Part shown: in pieces, positions 1 through 9,772 of the stretch
Position numbering within the stretch: the first letter of the stretch is position 1
How the letters are laid out: each line of letters begins with the position of its first letter
IMG/VR virus record: IMGVR_UViG_2606217100_000002
Direction: 5' to 3' (one strand)
DNA: 9,772 nt
Source: a virus
Taxonomy: Duplodnaviria; Heunggongvirae; Uroviricota; Caudoviricetes
Made by a program: the position numbers and the translations under genes
The notes under the pieces: model-generated
Told to the model about the DNA's origin: nothing
The model's database searches: none
What the model saw: the letters and a program-made list of their open reading frames with translations, nothing else

Positions 1-258
1 ATGCAAACCGTTATTTTTGGTCGTTCGGGTTGCCCTTACTGTGTGCGTGCAAAAGATCTGGCTGAGAAATTGAGCAATGAACGCGATGATTTTCAGTATC
101 AGTATGTAGATATTCGTGCGGAAGGGATCACTAAAGAAGATCTACAACAAAAGGCAGGTAAACCCGTAGAAACCGTGCCGCAGATTTTTGTCGATCAGCA
201 ACATATCGGCGGCTATACCGATTTTGCTGCATGGGTGAAAGAAAATCTGGACGCCTGA
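1..258 (+). CDS. grxA: glutaredoxin 1
   Basis: Complete 85-aa ORF with CPYC active-site motif near the N-terminus; sequence recognised as enterobacterial Grx1; TGA stop at 256-258 followed by a hairpin terminator. Confidence 0.93.
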   Translation: MQTVIFGRSGCPYCVRAKDLAEKLSNERDDFQYQYVDIRAEGITKEDLQQKAGKPVETVPQIFVDQQHIGGYTDFAAWVKENLDA

Positions 259-267
259 TCGTCTGAC

Positions 268-300
268 AAGCCCTCGCGTTGAGGGCTTTACTGATTTTTT
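268..300. terminator. intrinsic terminator shared by the convergent grxA and ybjM genes
   Basis: Stem AGCCCTC (269-275) / GAGGGCT (281-287) with 5-nt loop, followed by a T6 run at 295-300; lies between two convergent genes and overlaps the ybjM stop. Confidence 0.6.
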
Positions 301-665
301 CTGTGCTGTGGTTTAAACAAACTACTGATAAATAAGAAACACAGTGCCCCCAGCGCACACCAGAACACCGCGCTTAGTAACCATGCCAGCTCTTGCCAGA
401 ATGAGCGCGTCGGTGAAAAAAACAGCCGCATAATGAGCATTGAACAGGGTGCCGCCAGCATTGCGCCAAATAGAGGTTTCAGGACTTCTCTACGCTGTGA
501 AAAGAAACTGGCAACTGCTCCAGGAAGAATGAAAAATAGCAAGCCGATTTCAGGATGCCCGGCAGCCCGAAAAGCGCCTTTCATGTGCGTCGCCAGAAAA
601 AGGCACACCACAATGAAGAGGACAAAACAGCAGATTGCCCCCGCCCAACGTTGTTTATGTTTCAC
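288..665 (-). CDS. ybjM: inner membrane protein YbjM (function unknown)
   Basis: 125-aa ORF, very hydrophobic with several predicted transmembrane helices; conserved position between grxA and ybjL as in E. coli. Confidence 0.85.
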   Translation of the reverse strand: MKHKQRWAGAICCFVLFIVVCLFLATHMKGAFRAAGHPEIGLLFFILPGAVASFFSQRREVLKPLFGAMLAAPCSMLIMRLFFSPTRSFWQELAWLLSAVFWCALGALCFLFISSLFKPQHRKNQ

Positions 666-934
666 TCGTTCCTCCTGACACTGCGTCTATCGAACACATT
701 TTTCGCCAGTGTGGCGTTCAGTAAGATAAAGCCGCTTCGCATTCCATGCTAATATAGGCCAACGCAATTCATATAGCCGTTGATACCTAATGTGATTACA
801 CTAGTAAAATATATTGTTACTTTACTATCGTTTAGGTGCGCTGAATGAATCTGCGCCCTGAATTCTGGTAAAAAACATTATCGTAAATTACCATTTCTTT
901 CAACAGCTTACTAGTAAACAAGAAGTTAGCCTCC

Positions 935-2620
935 GTGAATATAAACGTCGCCGAATTGTTAAATGGGAATTACATTCTGTTATTATTTGTGGTCCTCGCG
1001 CTTGGGCTATGTCTCGGAAAGTTACGACTTGGTTCGATCCAACTGGGTAATTCCATTGGCGTTTTAGTCGTATCGCTGTTATTAGGCCAACAACATTTCA
1101 GCATTAACACCGATGCGCTTAATCTTGGCTTTATGCTGTTTATTTTCTGCGTCGGGGTCGAAGCCGGACCGAACTTTTTTTCCATTTTTTTTCGCGATGG
1201 GAAAAATTACCTAATGTTAGCACTGGTGATGGTTGGCAGTGCGCTGGTGATCGCCTTAGGGTTAGGTAAGCTGTTTGGCTGGGATATTGGCCTGACGGCC
1301 GGTATGTTAGCAGGCTCTATGACGTCGACACCGGTTCTGGTCGGTGCTGGCGATACACTGCGTCATTTCGGCATGGAAAGCAGGCAGCTCTCACTGGCAC
1401 TGGATAATCTGAGCCTCGGGTATGCCTTAACCTATTTAATCGGTCTGGTGAGTTTGATTGTTGGTGCGCGTTACTTGCCGAAATTGCAGCATCAGGACTT
1501 ACAGACCAGCGCCCAGCAAATCGCCCGCGAACGTGGCCTGGACACTGATGCCAACCGTAAGGTTTATTTACCGGTGATCCGCGCCTATCGCGTCGGCCCG
1601 GAGCTGGTGGCCTGGACCGACGGCAAAAATCTGCGTGAACTGGGTATTTATCGACAAACCGGCTGCTACATTGAACGTATTCGACGTAACGGGATTCTGG
1701 CAAATCCAGACGGTGATGCCGTGCTACAAATGGGCGATGAAATAGCGTTGGTAGGCTATCCCGACGCCCATGCCCGACTCGATCCCAGCTTCCGTAACGG
1801 TAAAGAAGTTTTCGATCGTGACCTTCTCGACATGCGTATCGTCACTGAAGAAGTGGTCGTTAAAAACCATAACGCTGTAGGTAAACGTCTCGCACAACTG
1901 AAGTTGACCGATCACGGTTGCTTCCTTAACCGCGTCATTCGTAGCCAGATTGAGATGCCGATAGATGACAACGTCGTGCTTAACAAAGGTGACGTTTTAC
2001 AAGTCAGCGGTGATGCCCGTCGCGTAAAAACCATCGCCGATCGCATCGGCTTTATCTCGATTCACAGCCAGGTCACTGACCTGCTGGCATTTTGCGCCTT
2101 CTTTGTTATTGGGCTGATGATCGGGATGATCACCTTCCAGTTCAGCACATTCAGTTTCGGCATGGGGAACGCTGCCGGGTTGTTATTCGCCGGAATTATG
2201 CTGGGCTTTATGCGTGCTAACCACCCGACCTTCGGTTACATTCCGCAAGGTGCATTAAGCATGGTGAAAGAGTTCGGCTTGATGGTGTTTATGGCAGGCG
2301 TTGGTCTGAGCGCCGGTAGCGGTATTAATAACGGCCTGGGCGCGATTGGCGGTCAGATGTTGATTGCCGGATTAATTGTCAGTCTTGTGCCCGTGGTTAT
2401 CTGTTTCTTGTTCGGTGCTTATGTATTGCGAATGAACCGCGCACTGTTGTTCGGCGCAATGATGGGCGCACGCACCTGCGCGCCGGCAATGGAGATCATC
2501 AGTGATACAGCTCGCAGTAACATCCCTGCGCTGGGCTATGCGGGCACCTACGCAATCGCCAACGTCCTGCTGACGCTGGCAGGGACAATCATCGTCATGG
2601 TATGGCCAGGATTAGGATAA
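935..2620 (+). CDS. ybjL: putative transporter YbjL (AAE-family permease with two cytoplasmic RCK_C/TrkA-C-like regulatory domains)
   Basis: 561-aa ORF with GTG start at 935; hydrophobic N- and C-terminal permease halves flanking a soluble central region; sequence recognised as E. coli YbjL. Confidence 0.92.
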
Positions 2621-2661
2621 AACTGAAGTTGCCCTGAAAATGAAATTTTTTTGCACAACCG

Positions 2662-2690
2662 CAGAACTTTTCCGCAGGGCATCAGTCTTA
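2662..2690 (+). promoter_or_regulatory. sigma-E-type promoter of rybB
   Basis: aGAACTT (2663-2669) resembles the sigma-E -35 GGAACTT; 16-nt spacer; TCTTA (2686-2690) resembles the sigma-E -10 TCTGA/TCAAA; about 6 nt upstream of the RybB 5' end at 2697. Confidence 0.55.
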
Positions 2691-2696
2691 ATTAGT

Positions 2697-2775
2697 GCCA
2701 CTGCTTTTCTTTGATGTCCCCATTTTGTGGAGCCCATCAACCCCGCCATTTCGGTTCAAGGTTGATGGGTTTTTT
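2697..2775 (+). ncRNA. rybB: RybB small regulatory RNA (Hfq-dependent, sigma-E regulon, represses outer-membrane protein mRNAs)
   Basis: 79-nt sequence starting GCCACTGCTTTTCTTTGATGTCCCC (the known RybB seed) and ending in a 10-bp stem (CCCATCAACC 2733-2742 / GGTTGATGGG 2760-2769) plus T6 (2770-2775); located downstream of ybjL as in E. coli. Confidence 0.85.
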
Positions 2776-2833
2776 GTTGCCTGAAATTTATGCTATTTAA
2801 AATCATGATGTTAGAAGCACTGTTTTTTAACGA

Positions 2834-2855
2834 TGGCGACAAAATGGCGGCAGCG
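2834..2855 (+). repeat. 22-bp direct repeat, left copy (TGGCGACAAAATGGCGGCAGCG); candidate att core or Int arm-type site pair
   Basis: Matches 9733-9754 at 21 of 22 positions in the same orientation; directly abuts the ogr stop codon; contains two TGGCG half-sites spaced 11 bp apart. Confidence 0.5.
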
Positions 2856-3074
2856 TCAAAGAGAGAGCGCCACCTGTCCTGATTTCATTGGATGCGGCTG
2901 AACCGGATTTGACTCTTTGGGCGTTGCAATCGAACGAACAAAAGTTTCATGGGTAACAAAAGTATGGCTGCAGTTAATGTTCTGGCACTGGTTGTAACGC
3001 TCTTTGGTCAATGAAGATACCTGAAAACTGCTGCGAGTATGGGCGGCACTTCCACACAGTGGGCAAATCATCAT
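2856..3074 (-). CDS. ogr: Ogr/Delta-family zinc-finger late-gene transcriptional activator
   Basis: About 72 aa from ATG at 3074 (GGGAGA RBS 8 nt upstream); C-x2-C ... C-x4-C zinc-binding pattern (CPLCGSAAH ... CQNINCSHTF) resembling P2 Ogr; sits downstream of D as in P2. The tracked ORF extends to a GTG at 3107, which seems less likely. Confidence 0.85.
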   Translation of the reverse strand: MMICPLCGSAAHTRSSFQVSSLTKERYNQCQNINCSHTFVTHETFVRSIATPKESNPVQPHPMKSGQVALSL

Positions 3075-3164
3075 TTTTCGAGTTCTCCCCATTTTTGCTA
3101 AATTCACAATAATGATACCGCATTATTCCATTTTGCAAACTTAAAAGTTCTCCATTGCGAAGAA

Positions 3165-4265
3165 TCATTCCATTTCGAAATCATCAATCCTCACTTCAAG
3201 CTCCAGACTGGTCGTAAAACCATTATCCGGGCTGACGGTATGTGTCAGAGTCGTAATGGTCCATTCCGCATCATCTATCGGCTGTTTAAAGCCACTGACT
3301 TTCACTGGCATTTCCGTGTAGAGATCTGCCCGCCCTTCCGCCAGTTGTAGCGAGAATGACGCAACGCCGCGTTGCAGGCGTTCCCACTGCATTTTTGCCG
3401 CTCGTTCGGCGTTGCTCCGGTTGGCATAAGTGCGATTAAGTACCAGCACGTTTTCATCCGTCCCCACCAGGTAATCGCCCTGCTTCGCTTCCGGCTCTTT
3501 CTTCTGCTTCTTGGTCCTGCGATTACGCTTCACTGTAGTGCTTTCTTTCTTCGCAGGTTCGCGGGTATGCAACCAGCTGGCAATTACGCCCGTGTAGGCT
3601 CCGCGATCCGCCAGGGTAAAGCGGTGACTGTCGCCGTCCTTGCGTGTGATAGTGATCACCGGCAGTGGTTTACCGCTGGCACTTTTACCCTGTCCCTGCC
3701 GGATGAATAACAGATTGCTATTTTTCACCGACGCAATAGCACCGTACTGGCGCGCCAGCCGCATCAGAAAACTGCCGTCACTCTCATTAGTCTGGTCTAT
3801 ATGATCCACGGGTTTATCCGACAGGTCTTTACCCAGTGCCATCTTCAGTTTGTGACGCGCAGCTATTTCCTTCACCACTTCCCCGACCGTGGTCTTGTGC
3901 CACGATTTTTCACGGCGGGTATTCAGCGTTTCCCGAAAATCAGCACTTCGCGCCCGGATGGTCAGGCGGTCCGGTGCGCCAGTGTGTTCAATCTCGTCCA
4001 CCGTGAATGCCCCTTTCGGGAAAAGCGGCTGCCCCTTCCAGCCCAGCGCCAGCGTAATGACCGCACCACGGCGCGGCAGCACGATTTTTCCGTCGGCGTC
4101 GTCCAGCTCCAGATCAAGCTGGTCTGCTTCAAAGCCCCGGTTATCCGTCAGCGTCAGCCCCATCAGGCGGTTGTCCAGCACAGTGGTGATATCCCTGCCT
4201 TCAATACTGATGCTGAATGCCGGAGTTTTGTTACCTTTGTTAAGCAGTTCAGAGCTGAAATTCAC
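3165..4265 (-). CDS. gpD: P2 gpD-like tail protein (late control gene D family)
   Basis: 366-aa ORF immediately upstream of ogr, the gpD position in P2; start overlaps the upstream gene stop in an ATGA arrangement (translational coupling); GC-rich phage-type composition. Confidence 0.8.
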   Translation of the reverse strand: MNFSSELLNKGNKTPAFSISIEGRDITTVLDNRLMGLTLTDNRGFEADQLDLELDDADGKIVLPRRGAVITLALGWKGQPLFPKGAFTVDEIEHTGAPDRLTIRARSADFRETLNTRREKSWHKTTVGEVVKEIAARHKLKMALGKDLSDKPVDHIDQTNESDGSFLMRLARQYGAIASVKNSNLLFIRQGQGKSASGKPLPVITITRKDGDSHRFTLADRGAYTGVIASWLHTREPAKKESTTVKRNRRTKKQKKEPEAKQGDYLVGTDENVLVLNRTYANRSNAERAAKMQWERLQRGVASFSLQLAEGRADLYTEMPVKVSGFKQPIDDAEWTITTLTHTVSPDNGFTTSLELEVRIDDFEME

Positions 4266-4747
4266 GACAGCAGCCCTCCCACCGTTTTACTGATATCGCT
4301 TAATGCAGACGTTGCCGTATCCTGCAGATTATTCAGTTGCGTACTGAGATCACCGAACATATCGGACAGGGATTCATCCACCCGTTTGAGCGACAGGGTG
4401 AACTCAATCCGGCGCGGCATACCGTCGCGGAAAAACTCCGTTTTAGTCAGATTCAGTCCCTCAATCACATACATGCCGTAAATCGTGCCACTGCCTTCAA
4501 TCAGGGGCCATGCTTTTCCCTGTTCTGCCATCTGCTCCAGAGCCAGCAACGACAGCCTGCCGCCCGTTATCTCCGGCATAAGAACACCAGAAAGCGTCAG
4601 CATGTCGTTGTCCGGTCCCAGAAACTGCGTGGACGGACGACGGTTTACCCGGCTGTTTGCCGCATGTCGCCAGCTGCGTTGATACTGCAGTTCCTGATAC
4701 GGAACGGTGCGCAGCATAAACACGTACAATCCCAGCACCATCATCAT
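4262..4747 (-). CDS. gpU: P2 gpU-like tail protein
   Basis: 161-aa ORF between the T remnant and D, matching P2 order T-U-D; ATGA overlaps at both ends (4744-4747 and 4262-4265). Confidence 0.78.
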   Translation of the reverse strand: MMMVLGLYVFMLRTVPYQELQYQRSWRHAANSRVNRRPSTQFLGPDNDMLTLSGVLMPEITGGRLSLLALEQMAEQGKAWPLIEGSGTIYGMYVIEGLNLTKTEFFRDGMPRRIEFTLSLKRVDESLSDMFGDLSTQLNNLQDTATSALSDISKTVGGLLS

Positions 4748-5994
4748 GCGTCGTAACCCCCCTGATCGCTGTAGTTACTCCTGGCTTTTGCCTTCAGCCT
4801 GCGTTCACGTTCATCAAGCTGGCGGGCCACCTCCCGCGCAATATCCTGCGCACTTTGTCCAGGCTGCGTCTGGATGATGATCTGCATCGGTGCCTCAATC
4901 CTGTAAACGGGCGGCACAGTGGCTGCGCGACTCACCATCGCTTCTCCACCTTTCGCGGGAAGTGCCAAAGGGTGCAACGGTGGAAGCTCTGCTGGCGCGG
5001 CAGCAACGCCCATCATTCCGGCAACAACGGCAGCCAGTGCAGCTGTATTTCTCCGGCTGGTCACATTTGCCGGGCCATTAACAATTTCCGGCCCGTTTTC
5101 ACCGACGATGCCAAACTGCCCGCGCGGGATATAGCCGCCGCTGTCATACATCCCCGCAAAGCCATATCCCCATGACGGAAAACCACCCGATGGCATCATC
5201 ACTTTACCGTCTGCATTCACCGTCGCAGTTTGCTGACGCGTCACGCTTTCCGGCAGTTTTGCCTTTGCGGCCTCTTTACTGACAATGCCGAGCTTCTCCA
5301 GCAACCAGGAAACGCCGGATTTCAGGGAGTCCAGCGGATGCATGACCATATTCAGCCCTTCCGCCAGTGCCTCCCCGAATCGTCGCCCCATTGCCGCTGC
5401 GCTCTGCAGTTCGGCAGAGGTCGACTTAACGGGCGTCAGCAGATCAGTAAACCAGCCCCACAGCGCCTGTACTTTGTCGCCAATCCACTGAAACACAGGC
5501 TTAAGTGGTTCGAATGCAGCACTGATGGGACCTGCCGCCGCTTTGAATCCTTCCACCACGCCACCGATAAATGCGGTGATGGGTTGCCAGTATTTCCAGA
5601 CAACCAGCGCCACGCCCGCCAGTGCAGTAACCACAAGACCTATCGGACTGAGCAGAGCACCTACCGCACCTGCTGCAACACGCCCGATCTCTGCAGTTGC
5701 GCTCATGACGTAATGCGGCAGTTTCTCTTTTGCTACCTCATTAATCGGTACACATGGCAGACAATGAATCTGTGCCAGAAAACCATCTACCAACGTTGAA
5801 TCTTCAGTCAGATCGGTAAGCAGCCAGATTTCTGGTGCGGTTAATAAATGAGGTTGAGCTGGGTTCAGCTTGTTCCGCAGAATCTGCACATTCATGCCCG
5901 CACGTTCTGCCAGTTGCACCAGATTGTGGCGCAGTGCGAATGCACGACAGGCTTCATCAAAATGTGGATGTTTGGAAACTTGGTAATCAAACAT
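4744..5994 (-). CDS. chimeric ORF: N-terminal ~100 aa of a 186 CII-like regulator fused in frame to the C-terminal ~300 aa of a tail tape-measure protein (gpT remnant)
   Basis: From ATG at 5994 (GAGGTG RBS upstream) the first ~100 aa ([19 protein letters not shown] ... [25 protein letters not shown]) resemble phage 186 CII family regulators; the remainder is Gly/Ala-rich hydrophobic sequence typical of the C-terminal part of P2-type tape-measure proteins and is followed by U and D. The tracked ORF start at 6048 would overlap the upstream gene. Confidence 0.62.
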
Positions 5995-6026: not shown

Positions 6027-6248
6027 CTAGTTGAATACAACATTGCAATCAGTAAGTGCATCAACGGTAAGAGCAGCAAGGTTGATCATTACCTTTTCTC
6101 TTTTCTTGTCTTTACGAAGACGATGCCGAGGAATGCGACCATCCGCCAACATATCGTTGATTGTGTCGATTGAAAGACCAGTAAGTTCGCTATAACGCTC
6201 GATTGTGACGTGTGGCGTATTCAGAGTTATTGAAATGTTAGGGGTCAT
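6027..6248 (-). CDS. Apl/Cox-like small DNA-binding protein (excisionase / lytic-switch regulator)
   Basis: 73-aa ORF from ATG at 6248 (AGGAG 10 nt upstream); first gene of the leftward operon, divergent from cI and followed by the cII-like gene (the apl position in 186); helix-turn-helix-like segment [25 protein letters not shown]. The tracked start at 6365 would overlap cI. Confidence 0.55.
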
Positions 6249-6321: not shown

Positions 6322-6350
6322 ATACTAGGATCGCAAAAGAGATATGTCAA
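6322..6350 (-). promoter_or_regulatory. early (lytic, pR/Pe-like) sigma-70 promoter driving apl/cox and the cII fusion
   Basis: On the minus strand TTGACA (plus coordinates 6345-6350, overlapping the cI start codon), a 17-nt spacer, then TAGTAT (6322-6327); predicted start near 6314 at the edge of the palindrome. Confidence 0.5.
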
Positions 6351-6940
6351 CATCAAAGTACCCAAGTGAGATCAAAATAAATCCCAATAAAGGTGGTAAG
6401 GCTGCGATTGAGCGATTAGTCGAAGCCTATGGCTTTACGACACGACAGGCTTTAGCTGATCACTTGGAAGTATCAAAAAGCACACTAGCGAACAGGTATT
6501 TGCGGGATACATTTCCTGCTGACTGGATAATCCAATGTGCTCTTGAAACAGGAACCTCCCTCAAATGGTTAACTACCGGACAAGGCCTTAAGCAAAGCTC
6601 GCTGACAGCAGCTACAGAAGAGCTTGTTAAGTTTCGCCTTGCCGCAGGCAAAATGATTGAAGACGGTTCATATGTCTTCGATTCATCATTTCTTCCTGCA
6701 AACCTTTCATCACCAATTGTTGTTCAGGATGGACTCGTCACATACATTTGTGATCAAAAATTTTCTGAAGTACTTGATGGAAACTGGTTAATCAATATCG
6801 ACGGAACCTATTCCATTCGAAAAATCACAAGGCTTCCTAAAGGAATGATTAAAATTACAACAGCAGAGAATAGCTTTGAATGTGCATTTTCTGATATTGA
6901 AGTGGTTGCTTGTATAAGAAGTACAATAGTCTCGAATTAA
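6344..6940 (+). CDS. cI: phage CI-type immunity repressor (186 CI-like: N-terminal HTH plus C-terminal oligomerisation domain)
   Basis: 198-aa ORF; N-terminal helix-turn-helix region (GFTTRQALADHLEVSKSTLANRYL) typical of the phage CI repressor family; divergent from the apl/cox-like gene and upstream of int as in P2/186. Confidence 0.8.
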   Translation: MSTSKYPSEIKINPNKGGKAAIERLVEAYGFTTRQALADHLEVSKSTLANRYLRDTFPADWIIQCALETGTSLKWLTTGQGLKQSSLTAATEELVKFRLAAGKMIEDGSYVFDSSFLPANLSSPIVVQDGLVTYICDQKFSEVLDGNWLINIDGTYSIRKITRLPKGMIKITTAENSFECAFSDIEVVACIRSTIVSN

Positions 6941-6960: not shown

Positions 6961-8637
6961 ATGAATTCATTTGCCATCGTTATACTCTTATTAGCATTTC
7001 TCGCCCCTGTTCTAGCTGTAATATTATTTAAACAAAGTAAAAAACACAAAGCGGCTATAGATAACCTGACAGCTAACAACATAGCCCTTTCTAACCAACT
7101 GATTGAAAATCAAGAAAAACTAGCACAGACCGTACGAGAATTATCAGAGCTTGAAGGGCGAGCAGCACCATTGTGGCAATACGAAGAATTGCACAGCGCA
7201 GTAATGGATGCAGAGAATAAGATAAAAAATGCGGACTCAATAGCCAAGCAAAAAATAGATGAAGCCCAAATTAAGGCGGCTAAAACAGTAAACGAAGCAA
7301 ATTATCAAGCTCAGATGACAATAAGCAACGCTAATAGCGAAGCTATAGCAATCACCAAAGACGCTCGCGATGCACGCCTGAAAGCCAAAGAACGTCTTGA
7401 TAATGCTAATAATAAAGCAAATGAGCTAATCTCAAATGCTAATGACAATGCAGTAAAAATTATTTCTGATGCAGAAGAAAGAGCAAAGGAGATTGCTGGT
7501 TCAGCATATGAAGCTAAAGAGTTTGCAGAAAAATATGAAGCAGTTGCAAAATCAATGAAAAATAAAATTGAAGGTTATGGTGATGAATGGATCATCCCTA
7601 ACCGTAGTGTACTTGATGAGCTGGCAGAAAATTATGAATTTACAGATGCAGGCAAGGAATTACAAAAAGCCAGAGAGTTAACCAAATCATTAATAAAAAC
7701 TAATAAAGCTGCTTCGTGTGATTATGTTGAGCAAAACAGGCGTAATACTGCCATAAACTTTGTTTTGGATGCCTTCAATGGAAGAGTTGACAGTATTTTA
7801 TCAAAAGTCAAACACAACAATTTTGGAAAACTTTCCCAAGAAATAAAAGATGCATTTCAACTAGTAAATTACAATGGCTCTGCCTTTAGGTCCGCAAAAA
7901 TAAGTGACATCTATCTTCAGGCAAGACTCAACGAGCTAAAATGGGGTGTAGCAGTTAATGAAATTATGCTCGAAGAAAAAGAAGAGCAAAGAAGGATTAA
8001 AGAACAGCTTCGTGAAGAGGAAAGAGCTCGTAGAGAATATGAAAAAGCGATAAAAGAAGCTGAAAAAGAAGAAAAAGCTATTCAGCAAGCTATAAATAAA
8101 GCAACGAAAGAACTTATGCTTGCAAATGAAGAACAACGCTTAGCTTTAGAGCAAAAAATAGCTGAACTACAGTTAAAATATGAAGAAGCTGAAGCTAAAA
8201 ATCAACGAGCTATTTCTATGGCTCAACAAACCAGATCAGGCTACGTCTATATCATTAGTAATATTGGTTCATTTGGCGAAGATGTATATAAAATTGGAAT
8301 GACACGCCGCCTTGAACCACTTGATCGTGTTCGTGAACTCGGAGATGCTAGTGTTCCTTTTTCGTTCGATGTTCATGCGATGATTTATAGTGATGATGCA
8401 CCATCATTAGAAAACCATCTGCATAAAGTTTTCAACGAAAAGCAGGTCAATAAAATTAACTCACGAAAAGAGTTTTTTAACGTAAATTTAAAAGAAATCA
8501 AATCAGTTATTGAAGACATGAACATCAACGCCCACTGGACAATGTTTGCAGAGGCGAAAGAATATAGAGAGTCTCTAGCTATTGAGCAGGAGCGCAAAGC
8601 AGCCACTTCCGCCAACGATGAACTACATGTTGCTTAG
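6961..8637 (+). CDS. cargo (moron) protein: N-terminal transmembrane anchor, extended coiled coils, DUF4041-like middle region and C-terminal T5orf172/GIY-YIG-type nuclease domain; candidate anti-phage defence effector
   Basis: 558-aa ORF with AAAGGA RBS 8 nt upstream of ATG, 20 bp after the cI stop. Residues 5-23 hydrophobic (FAIVILLLAFLAPVLAVILF) followed by KQSKKHK. Two long K/E/A-rich coiled-coil stretches. C-terminus GYVYIISN...YKIGMTRR...RVRELGDASVPFSFDVHAMIYSDDAPSLENHLHKVF...RKEFFNV fits the GIY-(10-11)-YIG, Arg, Glu pattern of T5orf172/GIY-YIG nucleases. Markedly AT-rich relative to the flanking prophage genes. Confidence 0.6.
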   Translation: MNSFAIVILLLAFLAPVLAVILFKQSKKHKAAIDNLTANNIALSNQLIENQEKLAQTVRELSELEGRAAPLWQYEELHSAVMDAENKIKNADSIAKQKIDEAQIKAAKTVNEANYQAQMTISNANSEAIAITKDARDARLKAKERLDNANNKANELISNANDNAVKIISDAEERAKEIAGSAYEAKEFAEKYEAVAKSMKNKIEGYGDEWIIPNRSVLDELAENYEFTDAGKELQKARELTKSLIKTNKAASCDYVEQNRRNTAINFVLDAFNGRVDSILSKVKHNNFGKLSQEIKDAFQLVNYNGSAFRSAKISDIYLQARLNELKWGVAVNEIMLEEKEEQRRIKEQLREEERARREYEKAIKEAEKEEKAIQQAINKATKELMLANEEQRLALEQKIAELQLKYEEAEAKNQRAISMAQQTRSGYVYIISNIGSFGEDVYKIGMTRRLEPLDRVRELGDASVPFSFDVHAMIYSDDAPSLENHLHKVFNEKQVNKINSRKEFFNVNLKEIKSVIEDMNINAHWTMFAEAKEYRESLAIEQERKAATSANDELHVA

Positions 8638-8719: not shown

Positions 8720-9772
8720 ATGGCAGTACGAAAACTAACCACAGGGAAATGGCTTTGCGAATGTTACCCCGCCGGACGAAGTGGGCGTCGTGTGCGTAAA
8801 CAATTCGCTACCAAAGGCGAAGCACTGGCTTTTGAGCGCCACACGATGGAAGAAACCGAAGCAAAGCCCTGGCTGGGTGAATCAGTGGATCGTCGAACAC
8901 TGAAAGACGTGGTTGAGCTATGGTTCAAACTACATGGTAAATCTCTGACAGCTGGGCAGCATGTCTATGACAAATTGCTGTTGATGGTTGACGCTCTGGG
9001 CAATCCTCTTGCAACCGATCTCACCTCTAAAATGTTTGCCCACTATCGAGATAAACGCCTGACAGGCGAGATCTACTTCAGCGAGAAATGGAAGAAAGGA
9101 GCAAGCCCGGTCACCATTAACCTGGAGCAAAGCTATCTAAGTAGTGTTTTTAGCGAACTATCCCGTCTGGGCGAATGGTCGTATCCGAACCCACTGGAGA
9201 ACATGCGAAAATTCACCATCGCAGAAAAAGAGATGGCATGGCTTACCCATGAGCAGATTGTTGAATTGCTGGCTGATTGCAAACGTCAGGACCCAATTCT
9301 GGCACTGGTAGTTAAGATATGCTTAAGCACAGGCGCACGCTGGCGTGAAGCCGTAAATCTTACCCGCTCACAGGTGACCAAATACCGAATTACCTTTGTC
9401 AGAACGAAGGGGAAGAAAAACAGAAGCATCCCTATCAGTAAAGAGCTTTACGAAGAGATCATGGCGCTTGATGGGTTCAATTTCTTCACAGACTGCTATT
9501 TTCAATTTTTATCCGTGATGGAAAAAACGTCTATCGTGCTCCCTCGCGGTCAACTCACACACGTTCTGCGCCATACGTTTGCGGCGCACTTCATGATGTC
9601 GGGTGGAAACATTCTGGCCTTACAAAAAATTCTCGGACACCACGATATAAAAATGACTATGCGTTACGCACATCTGGCACCGGATCATCTAGAAACGGCG
9701 CTCCGTTTCAATCCTCTGGCAACGCTACCAAGTGGCGACAAAGTGGCGGCAGCGGTTGGCATTACCCCGTAA
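8720..9772 (+). CDS. int: P2-type tyrosine integrase (site-specific recombinase)
   Basis: 350-aa ORF; N-terminus MAVRKL.. and overall sequence resemble P2 Int; catalytic-region motifs LSTGARWREA (Arg), HVLRHTFAAHF (His-x-x-Arg) and MTMRYAHLAP (Tyr nucleophile); last gene before the presumed attachment site. Confidence 0.93.
   Translation: MAVRKLTTGKWLCECYPAGRSGRRVRKQFATKGEALAFERHTMEETEAKPWLGESVDRRTLKDVVELWFKLHGKSLTAGQHVYDKLLLMVDALGNPLATDLTSKMFAHYRDKRLTGEIYFSEKWKKGASPVTINLEQSYLSSVFSELSRLGEWSYPNPLENMRKFTIAEKEMAWLTHEQIVELLADCKRQDPILALVVKICLSTGARWREAVNLTRSQVTKYRITFVRTKGKKNRSIPISKELYEEIMALDGFNFFTDCYFQFLSVMEKTSIVLPRGQLTHVLRHTFAAHFMMSGGNILALQKILGHHDIKMTMRYAHLAPDHLETALRFNPLATLPSGDKVAAAVGITP
9733..9754 (+). 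repeat. 22-bp direct repeat, right copy (TGGCGACAAAGTGGCGGCAGCG), inside the 3' end of int
   Basis: 21 of 22 identity with 2834-2855 in the same orientation; encodes int residues ..GDKVAAA..; 18 nt before the int stop. Confidence 0.5.

Follow-up and report, generated by a model that had tools for sequence, protein, structure and literature searches.

Integration of P2-like prophages at the small RNA gene rybB is a known and ordinary arrangement that has been published since at least 2011, and for this reason the use of rybB as an integration site is not in itself a new lead. Archer et al. (2011, PMC3032704, Table 2) describe the defective P2-like prophages Rybb*W, Rybb*B and Rybb*Cr of E. coli W, B (REL606) and Crooks, for which 'rybB ncRNA' is given as the insertion site; Rybb*B carries retron Ec86. 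The main text of Hochhauser, Millman and Sorek (2023, PMC10121019) presents defence hotspot #29 as occupied only by Felsduovirus-type prophages integrated within rybB (109 genomes, up to two defence systems each), and the places in that main text where rybB is mentioned do not give a core or crossover position. For Klebsiella, Hudson et al. (2014, PMC4048246, Table 3) list the island Kpn38RybB, and GenBank record KY271398 (Klebsiella phage 4LV2017, Elveevirus) annotates both attL and attR as ATGGGTTTTTTGTTGCCTG and holds a whole rybB at its end.

The DNA analysed here, referred to as the window, is a stretch of 9,772 nt from IMG/VR virus record IMGVR_UViG_2606217100_000002. We are confident that the window spans the junction (attR) between the 3' end of rybB and a P2/186-like prophage (Peduoviridae) that is defective. 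In the model that we favor, a tyrosine integrase would insert the phage into the rybB 3' end by means of a 27-bp copy of chromosomal sequence in attP. This copy takes in the final 5 nt of the rybB terminator stem and the U-run and stops 3 nt short of the stop codon of rcdA, and Int would exchange strands in the left 14 bp of this core (2765-2778). To the left of the exchange point rybB would be host DNA, and an identical 3' tip plus the next 13 nt would come from the phage, as a result of which rybB, and rcdA at the other end, would both remain intact. About 25-26 kb between genes T and cII has since been lost from the window copy, which retains ogr-D-U, cox/apl, cI, a PD-Lambda-1 gene and int. 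Features on the rybB side of the junction are as follows.

935-2620, plus strand: ybjL (aspartate:alanine antiporter), the host gene 5' of rybB; Pfam Asp-Al_Ex 3e-83 and TrkA_C, and RefSeq ybjL in matching genomes
2664-2690, plus strand: sigma-E-type promoter of rybB, by motif match; -35 GAACTT (2664-2669), 16-nt spacer, -10 TCTTA (2686-2690)
2697-2778, plus strand: complete rybB sRNA gene; RF00110 match, fold, and identity to an empty-site E. coli genome (L002)
2765-2791, no strand: attR copy of the 27-bp att core, ATGGGTTTTTTGTTGCCTGAAATTTAT; identity to attB in L002
2765-2778, no strand: probable strand-exchange interval; linkage of core polymorphisms and secondary-site junctions
2792-2855, no strand: phage P' arm between the core and ogr; absent from empty sites

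An Rfam search revealed RybB (RF00110) as the sole RNA family in the window, at 2700-2778 on the plus strand, with a score of 105.3 bits compared to a gathering score of 40 (E = 1.9e-21) and with the whole model covered (1-79 of 79). The GCC at 2697-2699 was added to the Rfam span, as we take G2697 to be the known RybB 5' end; the 5' seed of the RNA is GCCACUGCUUUUCUUU. Alignment showed the whole gene to be identical, base for base, between the window and L002. Dependence of rybB on sigma-E is established, and the promoter is assigned here by its match to the motif GAACTT-N16-TCTTA (2664-2690), which ends 7 nt 5' of G2697; the pattern GAACTT-N15-17-TCTNA has a single match in the window versus 0.04 expected by chance. 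At the other end of the gene, a 12-bp stem (2731-2742 paired with 2760-2771) runs into a U-run at 2770-2775 that is followed by GUU. The fold of the stem plus UUUUUUGUU (-25.2 kcal/mol, z = -3.3) is that of a Rho-independent terminator with a U-run, i.e., an Hfq-binding 3' end. A simple terminator scan of 2550-3250 reported no terminator, because the scanner limits loops to 3-8 nt and the loop of the rybB hairpin exceeds 8 nt; the blank was rejected as evidence against the rybB terminator, as the loop-size rule accounts for the miss. To the left of rybB the window contains grxA, ybjM and ybjL, and the conserved position of rybB between ybjL and rcdA is kept, with rcdA directly next in empty sites and after the prophage in lysogens.

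An earlier note on this DNA had proposed a complete rybB with a sigma-E-type promoter and terminator, and phage sequence starting with ogr by 2856. Both proposals hold. The full RF00110 model, the motif at 2664-2690 and the fold bear out the first, with the gene ending at 2778, and the Ogr_Delta match together with a RefSeq gene at 2856-3074 bears out the second. The region from 2765 to 3732 is 95.9% identical to the attP-ogr region of Klebsiella phage KP12, and the phage genes of the window are as follows.

2856-3074, minus strand: ogr/B-type late-gene activator, zinc finger, reading toward rybB; Pfam Ogr_Delta 6.7e-22, phrog_603 1.5e-28
3165-4265, minus strand: tail gene D; Pfam Phage_GPD 3.5e-27
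4262-4747, minus strand: tail gene U; Pfam Phage_P2_GpU 9.5e-44
4744-5994, minus strand: chimeric ORF of 416 aa, CII joined to tape measure; BLAST and PHROGs
6027-6248, minus strand: Cox/Apl-like excisionase and repressor; phrog_575 9.6e-32
6344-6940, plus strand: 186-type CI repressor; Pfam Phage_CI_repr 8e-32, Phage_CI_C 3.5e-27
6961-8637, plus strand: PD-Lambda-1-type defence gene, cargo between cI and int; PADLOC PD-Lambda-1 3.4e-120, Pfam DUF4041, T5orf172 and MUG113
8720-9772, plus strand: tyrosine integrase, 350 aa; Pfam Int_N 3e-32, Phage_integrase 7e-22

The ORF that matches Ogr_Delta extends over 2856-3107 on the minus strand, and the equivalent RefSeq CDS in a genome with an intact prophage (WP_000972391.1 in L001) corresponds to 2856-3074. 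The att-proximal genes ogr, D and U are P2/186-like (Peduoviridae) and stand in the same order as in intact relatives; at the other att end, a 186-type switch of cI, cox/apl and cII, which also gave a Pfam Phage_CP76 match, accompanies the tyrosine integrase. The window finishes with the int stop codon, about 75 nt short of attL. In three lysogens (L004, L005 and L006), attL comes next after the equivalent int (WP_000290937.1), and rcdA lies beyond it. The full replication, head, lysis and tail gene set of a functional phage was not found in the window.

The chimeric ORF marks a deletion. It fuses the CII N-terminus (about 110 aa) in frame to the tape-measure C-terminus (about 306 aa), with the junction at about 5663; PHROGs place CII-like sequence at aa 1-114 and tape-measure families at aa 106-416. 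BLAST revealed that window positions 1-5663 are collinear with the intact prophage in L001, ending inside gene T, and that 5663-6263 matches L006 inside cII. The intact prophage in strain Res13 occupies about 33.7 kb between rybB and rcdA. From the layout of the intact relative and the T/cII junction it follows that about 25-26 kb, with the replication, head, lysis and tail genes, has been deleted from the window copy, and the deletion and the chimeric ORF together make the window prophage a defective remnant. Related copies carry other deletions: in L004 the start of D is fused to cII, and in L005 (strain L6-21) it is the middle of D. The cII-side endpoint of L005 (window 5662/5663) is shared with the window while its left endpoint, in gene D, is different, which suggests nested deletions from a common breakpoint. 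The exact T'-cII' junction of the window was absent from complete E. coli genomes, where the best match covered 82% of the window in two pieces, and the contiguous whole window was found in none of these genomes. Some related remnants carry IS1 (H33, H34 and H38).

A further observation concerns the genes that remain. The cI gene, the PD-Lambda-1 gene and int are all kept in three differently deleted remnants (the window, L004 and L005), and at the position of the PD-Lambda-1 gene the intact relative in Res13 has a small ORF only. The pattern fits a remnant that is retained as a defence island.

The attachment sites were compared in occupied chromosomes, empty chromosomes and phage genomes. 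The attR core of the window is identical at 27 of 27 positions to attB in the empty site of L002 (4366-4392). Of its 27 bp, the first 14 close the rybB gene (terminal part of the 3' stem strand, U-run and GUU) and the other 13 are spacer; in the empty site, the rcdA stop codon (TAG) stands 3 nt past the end of this spacer. Homology to empty sites stops at about 2791; visible divergence from the chromosome, where rcdA comes next, starts at 2792. The attP of an IMG/VR contig (L011) matches E. coli attB at all 27 core positions. That of the packaged Klebsiella phage KP12, in which int and ogr are contiguous, matches at 26 of 27 and reads CATAA-ATGGGTTTTTTGTTGTCTGAAATTTAT-GCCG; in this comparison the first 26 bp come from an aligned table and the 27th base (T) was read from flanking sequence. 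Both attP sequences lie between int and ogr and contain ATGGGTTTTTTGTT, i.e., the last 14 bp of rybB, and 12-13 further matching bases. The phage site carries a copy of the 3' end of its target gene, as is characteristic of integration into the 3' ends of RNA genes.

In L004, L005 and L006 the attL between int and rcdA reads ...AACCC[A/G]TTTACATAA-ATGGGTTTTTTGTT.... Direct repeats of the core flank the prophage in L001/L006, L004 and L005, and a single copy is present in the empty L002; the duplication is seen in these related genomes only, because the attL of the window strain lies past the end of the window. Comparison of attB, attP, attL and attR therefore defines a common core of 27 bp, 2765-2791. 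The empty-site alignment also confirms what the earlier note had proposed in general terms, integration at the 3' end of an sRNA gene by a P2-family element. Directly after int, the left arm of attL and the core form a hairpin with a U-run behind it, and thus the left part of the core serves as the 3' half of two terminators, that of int and that of rybB. In a further IMG/VR contig (L019), the attL sequence occurs twice in inverted orientation at the contig end (11542-11574, plus strand; 12064-12096, minus strand), which is probably an assembly artefact.

The spacer part of the host attB is polymorphic in E. coli. At the equivalent of 2779-2788 it reads GCCTGAAATTTAT, ATCTAAAATTTAT or ATCTAAAACTTAT (alleles seen in L002, L004-L006, L013-L024 and matches H138-H152), and the ATCTA-type allele is present in most of the attL copies sampled. 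An empty site constructed with ATCTA matched many unoccupied genomes at 100% over 81 nt. As ATCTA is present in unoccupied rybB-rcdA sites, it is a host allele. Both recovered attP sequences carry G[C/T]CTG and not ATCTA. Integration into an ATCTA host puts the phage GCCTG version right after the RybB U-tract.

The exchange of alleles, in which the bases after ...UUUUUUGUU change from AUCUAAAA to GCCUGAAA in ATCTA-allele hosts, is one of two features that might lead integration to alter RybB output. The other is that ogr points toward rybB and that no terminator-like site was found between them; on the minus strand between ogr and rybB no significant structure was detected (z = +0.24). A convergent ogr or a new downstream context could then act on termination, 3'-end length, Hfq binding or stability. 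We regard such an effect as unlikely. The mature RNA, the stem and the U-run are the same in every junction examined, and in GCCTG-allele hosts 13 more nt are also unchanged. Native rcdA is itself already convergent on rybB, and about 20 nt separate its stop codon from the U-run; that of ogr lies farther away, 77 nt past the rybB end. Moreover, the remnant retains cI. In phage 186, CI represses the late activator gene B, and by analogy CI would be expected to keep ogr silent in the lysogen. We infer that RybB expression is unaffected by integration, and the possibility raised in the earlier note, that the insertion affects RybB termination or stability, finds no basis in a sequence where the RNA and the next 13 nt are as in the GCCTG-allele empty site. 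A small effect is still conceivable in ATCTA-allele hosts, where the bases after GUU change.

In the empty site of L002 (4360-4420, minus strand), the 3' end of the rcdA CDS can pair with the antisense of the 3' half of the rybB terminator (-17.8 kcal/mol, z = -3.4). Integration shifts rcdA to the attL side and removes this pairing partner. Whether by the allele swap, by the lost rcdA pairing or by ogr replacing rcdA, lysogeny at rybB might be phenotypically non-neutral in some hosts, an idea to which we give little credence. If it were true, a shift could occur in how RybB 3' ends form, in read-through or in the stability of the 3' UTR of rcdA, and the sigma-E or RcdA regulons would be slightly retuned by a phage that about 20% of genomes carry.

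The same polymorphism bears on the position of strand exchange. Our initial model put the crossover in the rightmost part of the core (AAATTTAT, 2785-2791), so that insertion would be strictly in the spacer 3' of rybB and both rybB and the bases next to it would come from the host. This model drew on the attL cores of L004, L005 and L006, in which 3-4 positions are unlike those of attR and of the first empty site (ATCTAAAA[T/C] versus GCCTGAAAT); if ATCTA were the phage allele, the crossover would have to lie to the right of the differing positions. However, ATCTA belongs to the host and both attP sequences carry the alternative, as described above, and the pattern of linkage runs against the model as well. 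The first polymorphic position of the core is 2779. Comparison of 24 loci showed that bases in the right half of the core follow the phage ogr arm in attR and the host rcdA flank in attL, where GCCTG is linked to cccagcaatcc and ATCTA to ccctgcaaccc. L005 has ATCTA in attL, while its attR pairs GTCTG with the phage arm tgccgttt, the very combination of the KP12 attP. In Klebsiella, identity between attL and attR stops after GCCTG and leaves out AAATTTAT; divergence of the host flank beyond GCCTG limits the core identity there to 19-20 bp, versus 27 bp in E. coli. The initial model was rejected on these data and on the junctions of secondary sites, and we now consider a crossover at the right end of the core very improbable.

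Secondary insertions of the same phage were found at two kinds of site. In five complete genomes the phage is inserted in ptrR (yneJ), the putrescine regulator gene, which is split on both sides of the element, and the integrase of these insertions is identical at 348 of 350 residues (99%). At one junction ...GGTTAATGG is joined to GTTTTTTGTTGCCTG..., and at the other ...CATAAATGG is joined to CAGTAAC...; empty ptrR reads caggttaatggcagtaac (loci L003 3990-4040, L009 14590-14620 and L010 600-625; E. coli N32, TUM10828). What the ptrR site has in common with the core is limited to AATGG and a displaced ATTTATGCC. A fossil of aberrant excision or a chromosomal rearrangement was also considered as the origin of the rybB-like sequence next to ogr at ptrR, and this was rejected given the 99%-identical integrase and the splitting of ptrR on both sides. 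The second kind of site, which on its sequence appears to lie inside another prophage, is represented by L012 (IMG/VR UViG_2703718839_000004, about 8000-8060). Here the ogr arm and core are joined, at ...gcaaaaaaa next to ATGGG, to a lambdoid lysis cassette with Rz1, endolysin, holin and Q, and RybB is absent. The junctions at both kinds of secondary site, ptrR/yneJ and the lambdoid prophage, fall at the left edge of the core, within AATGG.

Taken with the linkage pattern, these junctions point to strand exchange inside rybB, probably within 2765-2778 and near ATGG(G). The DNA rightward of the exchange point would therefore be phage DNA that recreates the rybB 3' tip exactly. The 3' end of the gene in the lysogen thus appears to be phage-derived, and it is from the same comparisons that we infer the exact cleavage positions. 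Later gene conversion or homologous recombination could in principle give the same linkage pattern. The earlier picture of a prophage lying immediately 3' of an intact rybB is borne out as to the P2-family element and the intact gene. It requires correction as to the border: the core overlaps the last 14 bp of rybB and exchange maps within this overlap, so that the 3' tip of rybB in the lysogen would be rebuilt from the phage copy.

Occupancy of the rybB site, a comparison that the earlier note had called for, was assessed over complete E. coli genomes. With a match over 80% or more of window positions 2400-3300 as the criterion, the rybB-ogr junction was present in 1115 of 5426 genomes (about 20%). 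The intact rybB-rcdA junction was present in 4227 of the 5426, and about 80 genomes fell in neither class. That the rybB-ogr adjacency is a rearrangement or an assembly artefact and not the product of site-specific integration has next to no probability, for although the internal deletion and chimeric ORF mean that the region has been rearranged, the same junction recurs with base-pair precision in the 1115 complete genomes, a matching attL adjoins rcdA, attP is present in phage genomes, and a dedicated integrase adjoins attL.

A scan for the core plus P' arm with one genome per species gave a single match, Escherichia sp. E1V33, and says little on taxonomic spread because species representatives are mostly non-lysogens. 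In Klebsiella pneumoniae phages (KP12, L007; 4LV2017, L025/L026; matches H56-H95), the int, attP and ogr modules are 96-98% identical in nucleotide sequence to those of the E. coli prophage. Identity at this level implies either recent cross-genus exchange or a host range that would span Escherichia coli and Klebsiella.

The window resembles the Rybb* prophages most closely, as the site, the P2-like type and the degraded state are all the same. Cargo, which is PD-Lambda-1 in the window, and deletion differ; the Rybb* prophages are set apart here by their published description. Hotspot #29, as the main text of the survey presents it, matches the window in site, phage type and defence cargo. That survey, on the same account, counted only defence-carrying elements; the count reported here over complete genomes is 1115 of 5426. 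The Klebsiella elements (Kpn38RybB, 4LV2017 and KP12) belong to another host genus and are intact prophages of about 33 kb, not remnants. The P2 remnant ogr-D' of E. coli K-12, beside cyaR (ryeE), is likewise decayed and likewise has its ogr end adjoining an Hfq-dependent sRNA gene. By description, this remnant and the other P2-family sites at RNA genes (PMC3032704, Table 2; PMC3603311) involve a different sRNA, integrase and core.

As a discovery the locus carries little weight, since rybB has figured among the P2-family sites from 2011 at the latest and is already catalogued as a defence-island hotspot. What is added here is the 27-bp core, the probable exchange inside the rybB terminator, the polymorphism of the host attB, the rare secondary sites and the double use of the core. 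This base-pair detail opens no new question but is useful for the annotation of prophage borders and for the design of cured or marked strains. The general parallel is with integration at the 3' ends of tRNA and tmRNA genes (Williams 2002, cited in PMC10121019), where attP likewise carries a copy of the 3' part of the RNA, exchange occurs within that copy, the gene is rebuilt and int adjoins att. The rybB site differs from these in that the target is the terminator hairpin and U-run of an sRNA instead of the stem-loop of a tRNA, and in that the shared segment doubles as the 3' half of the terminator of the phage int gene.
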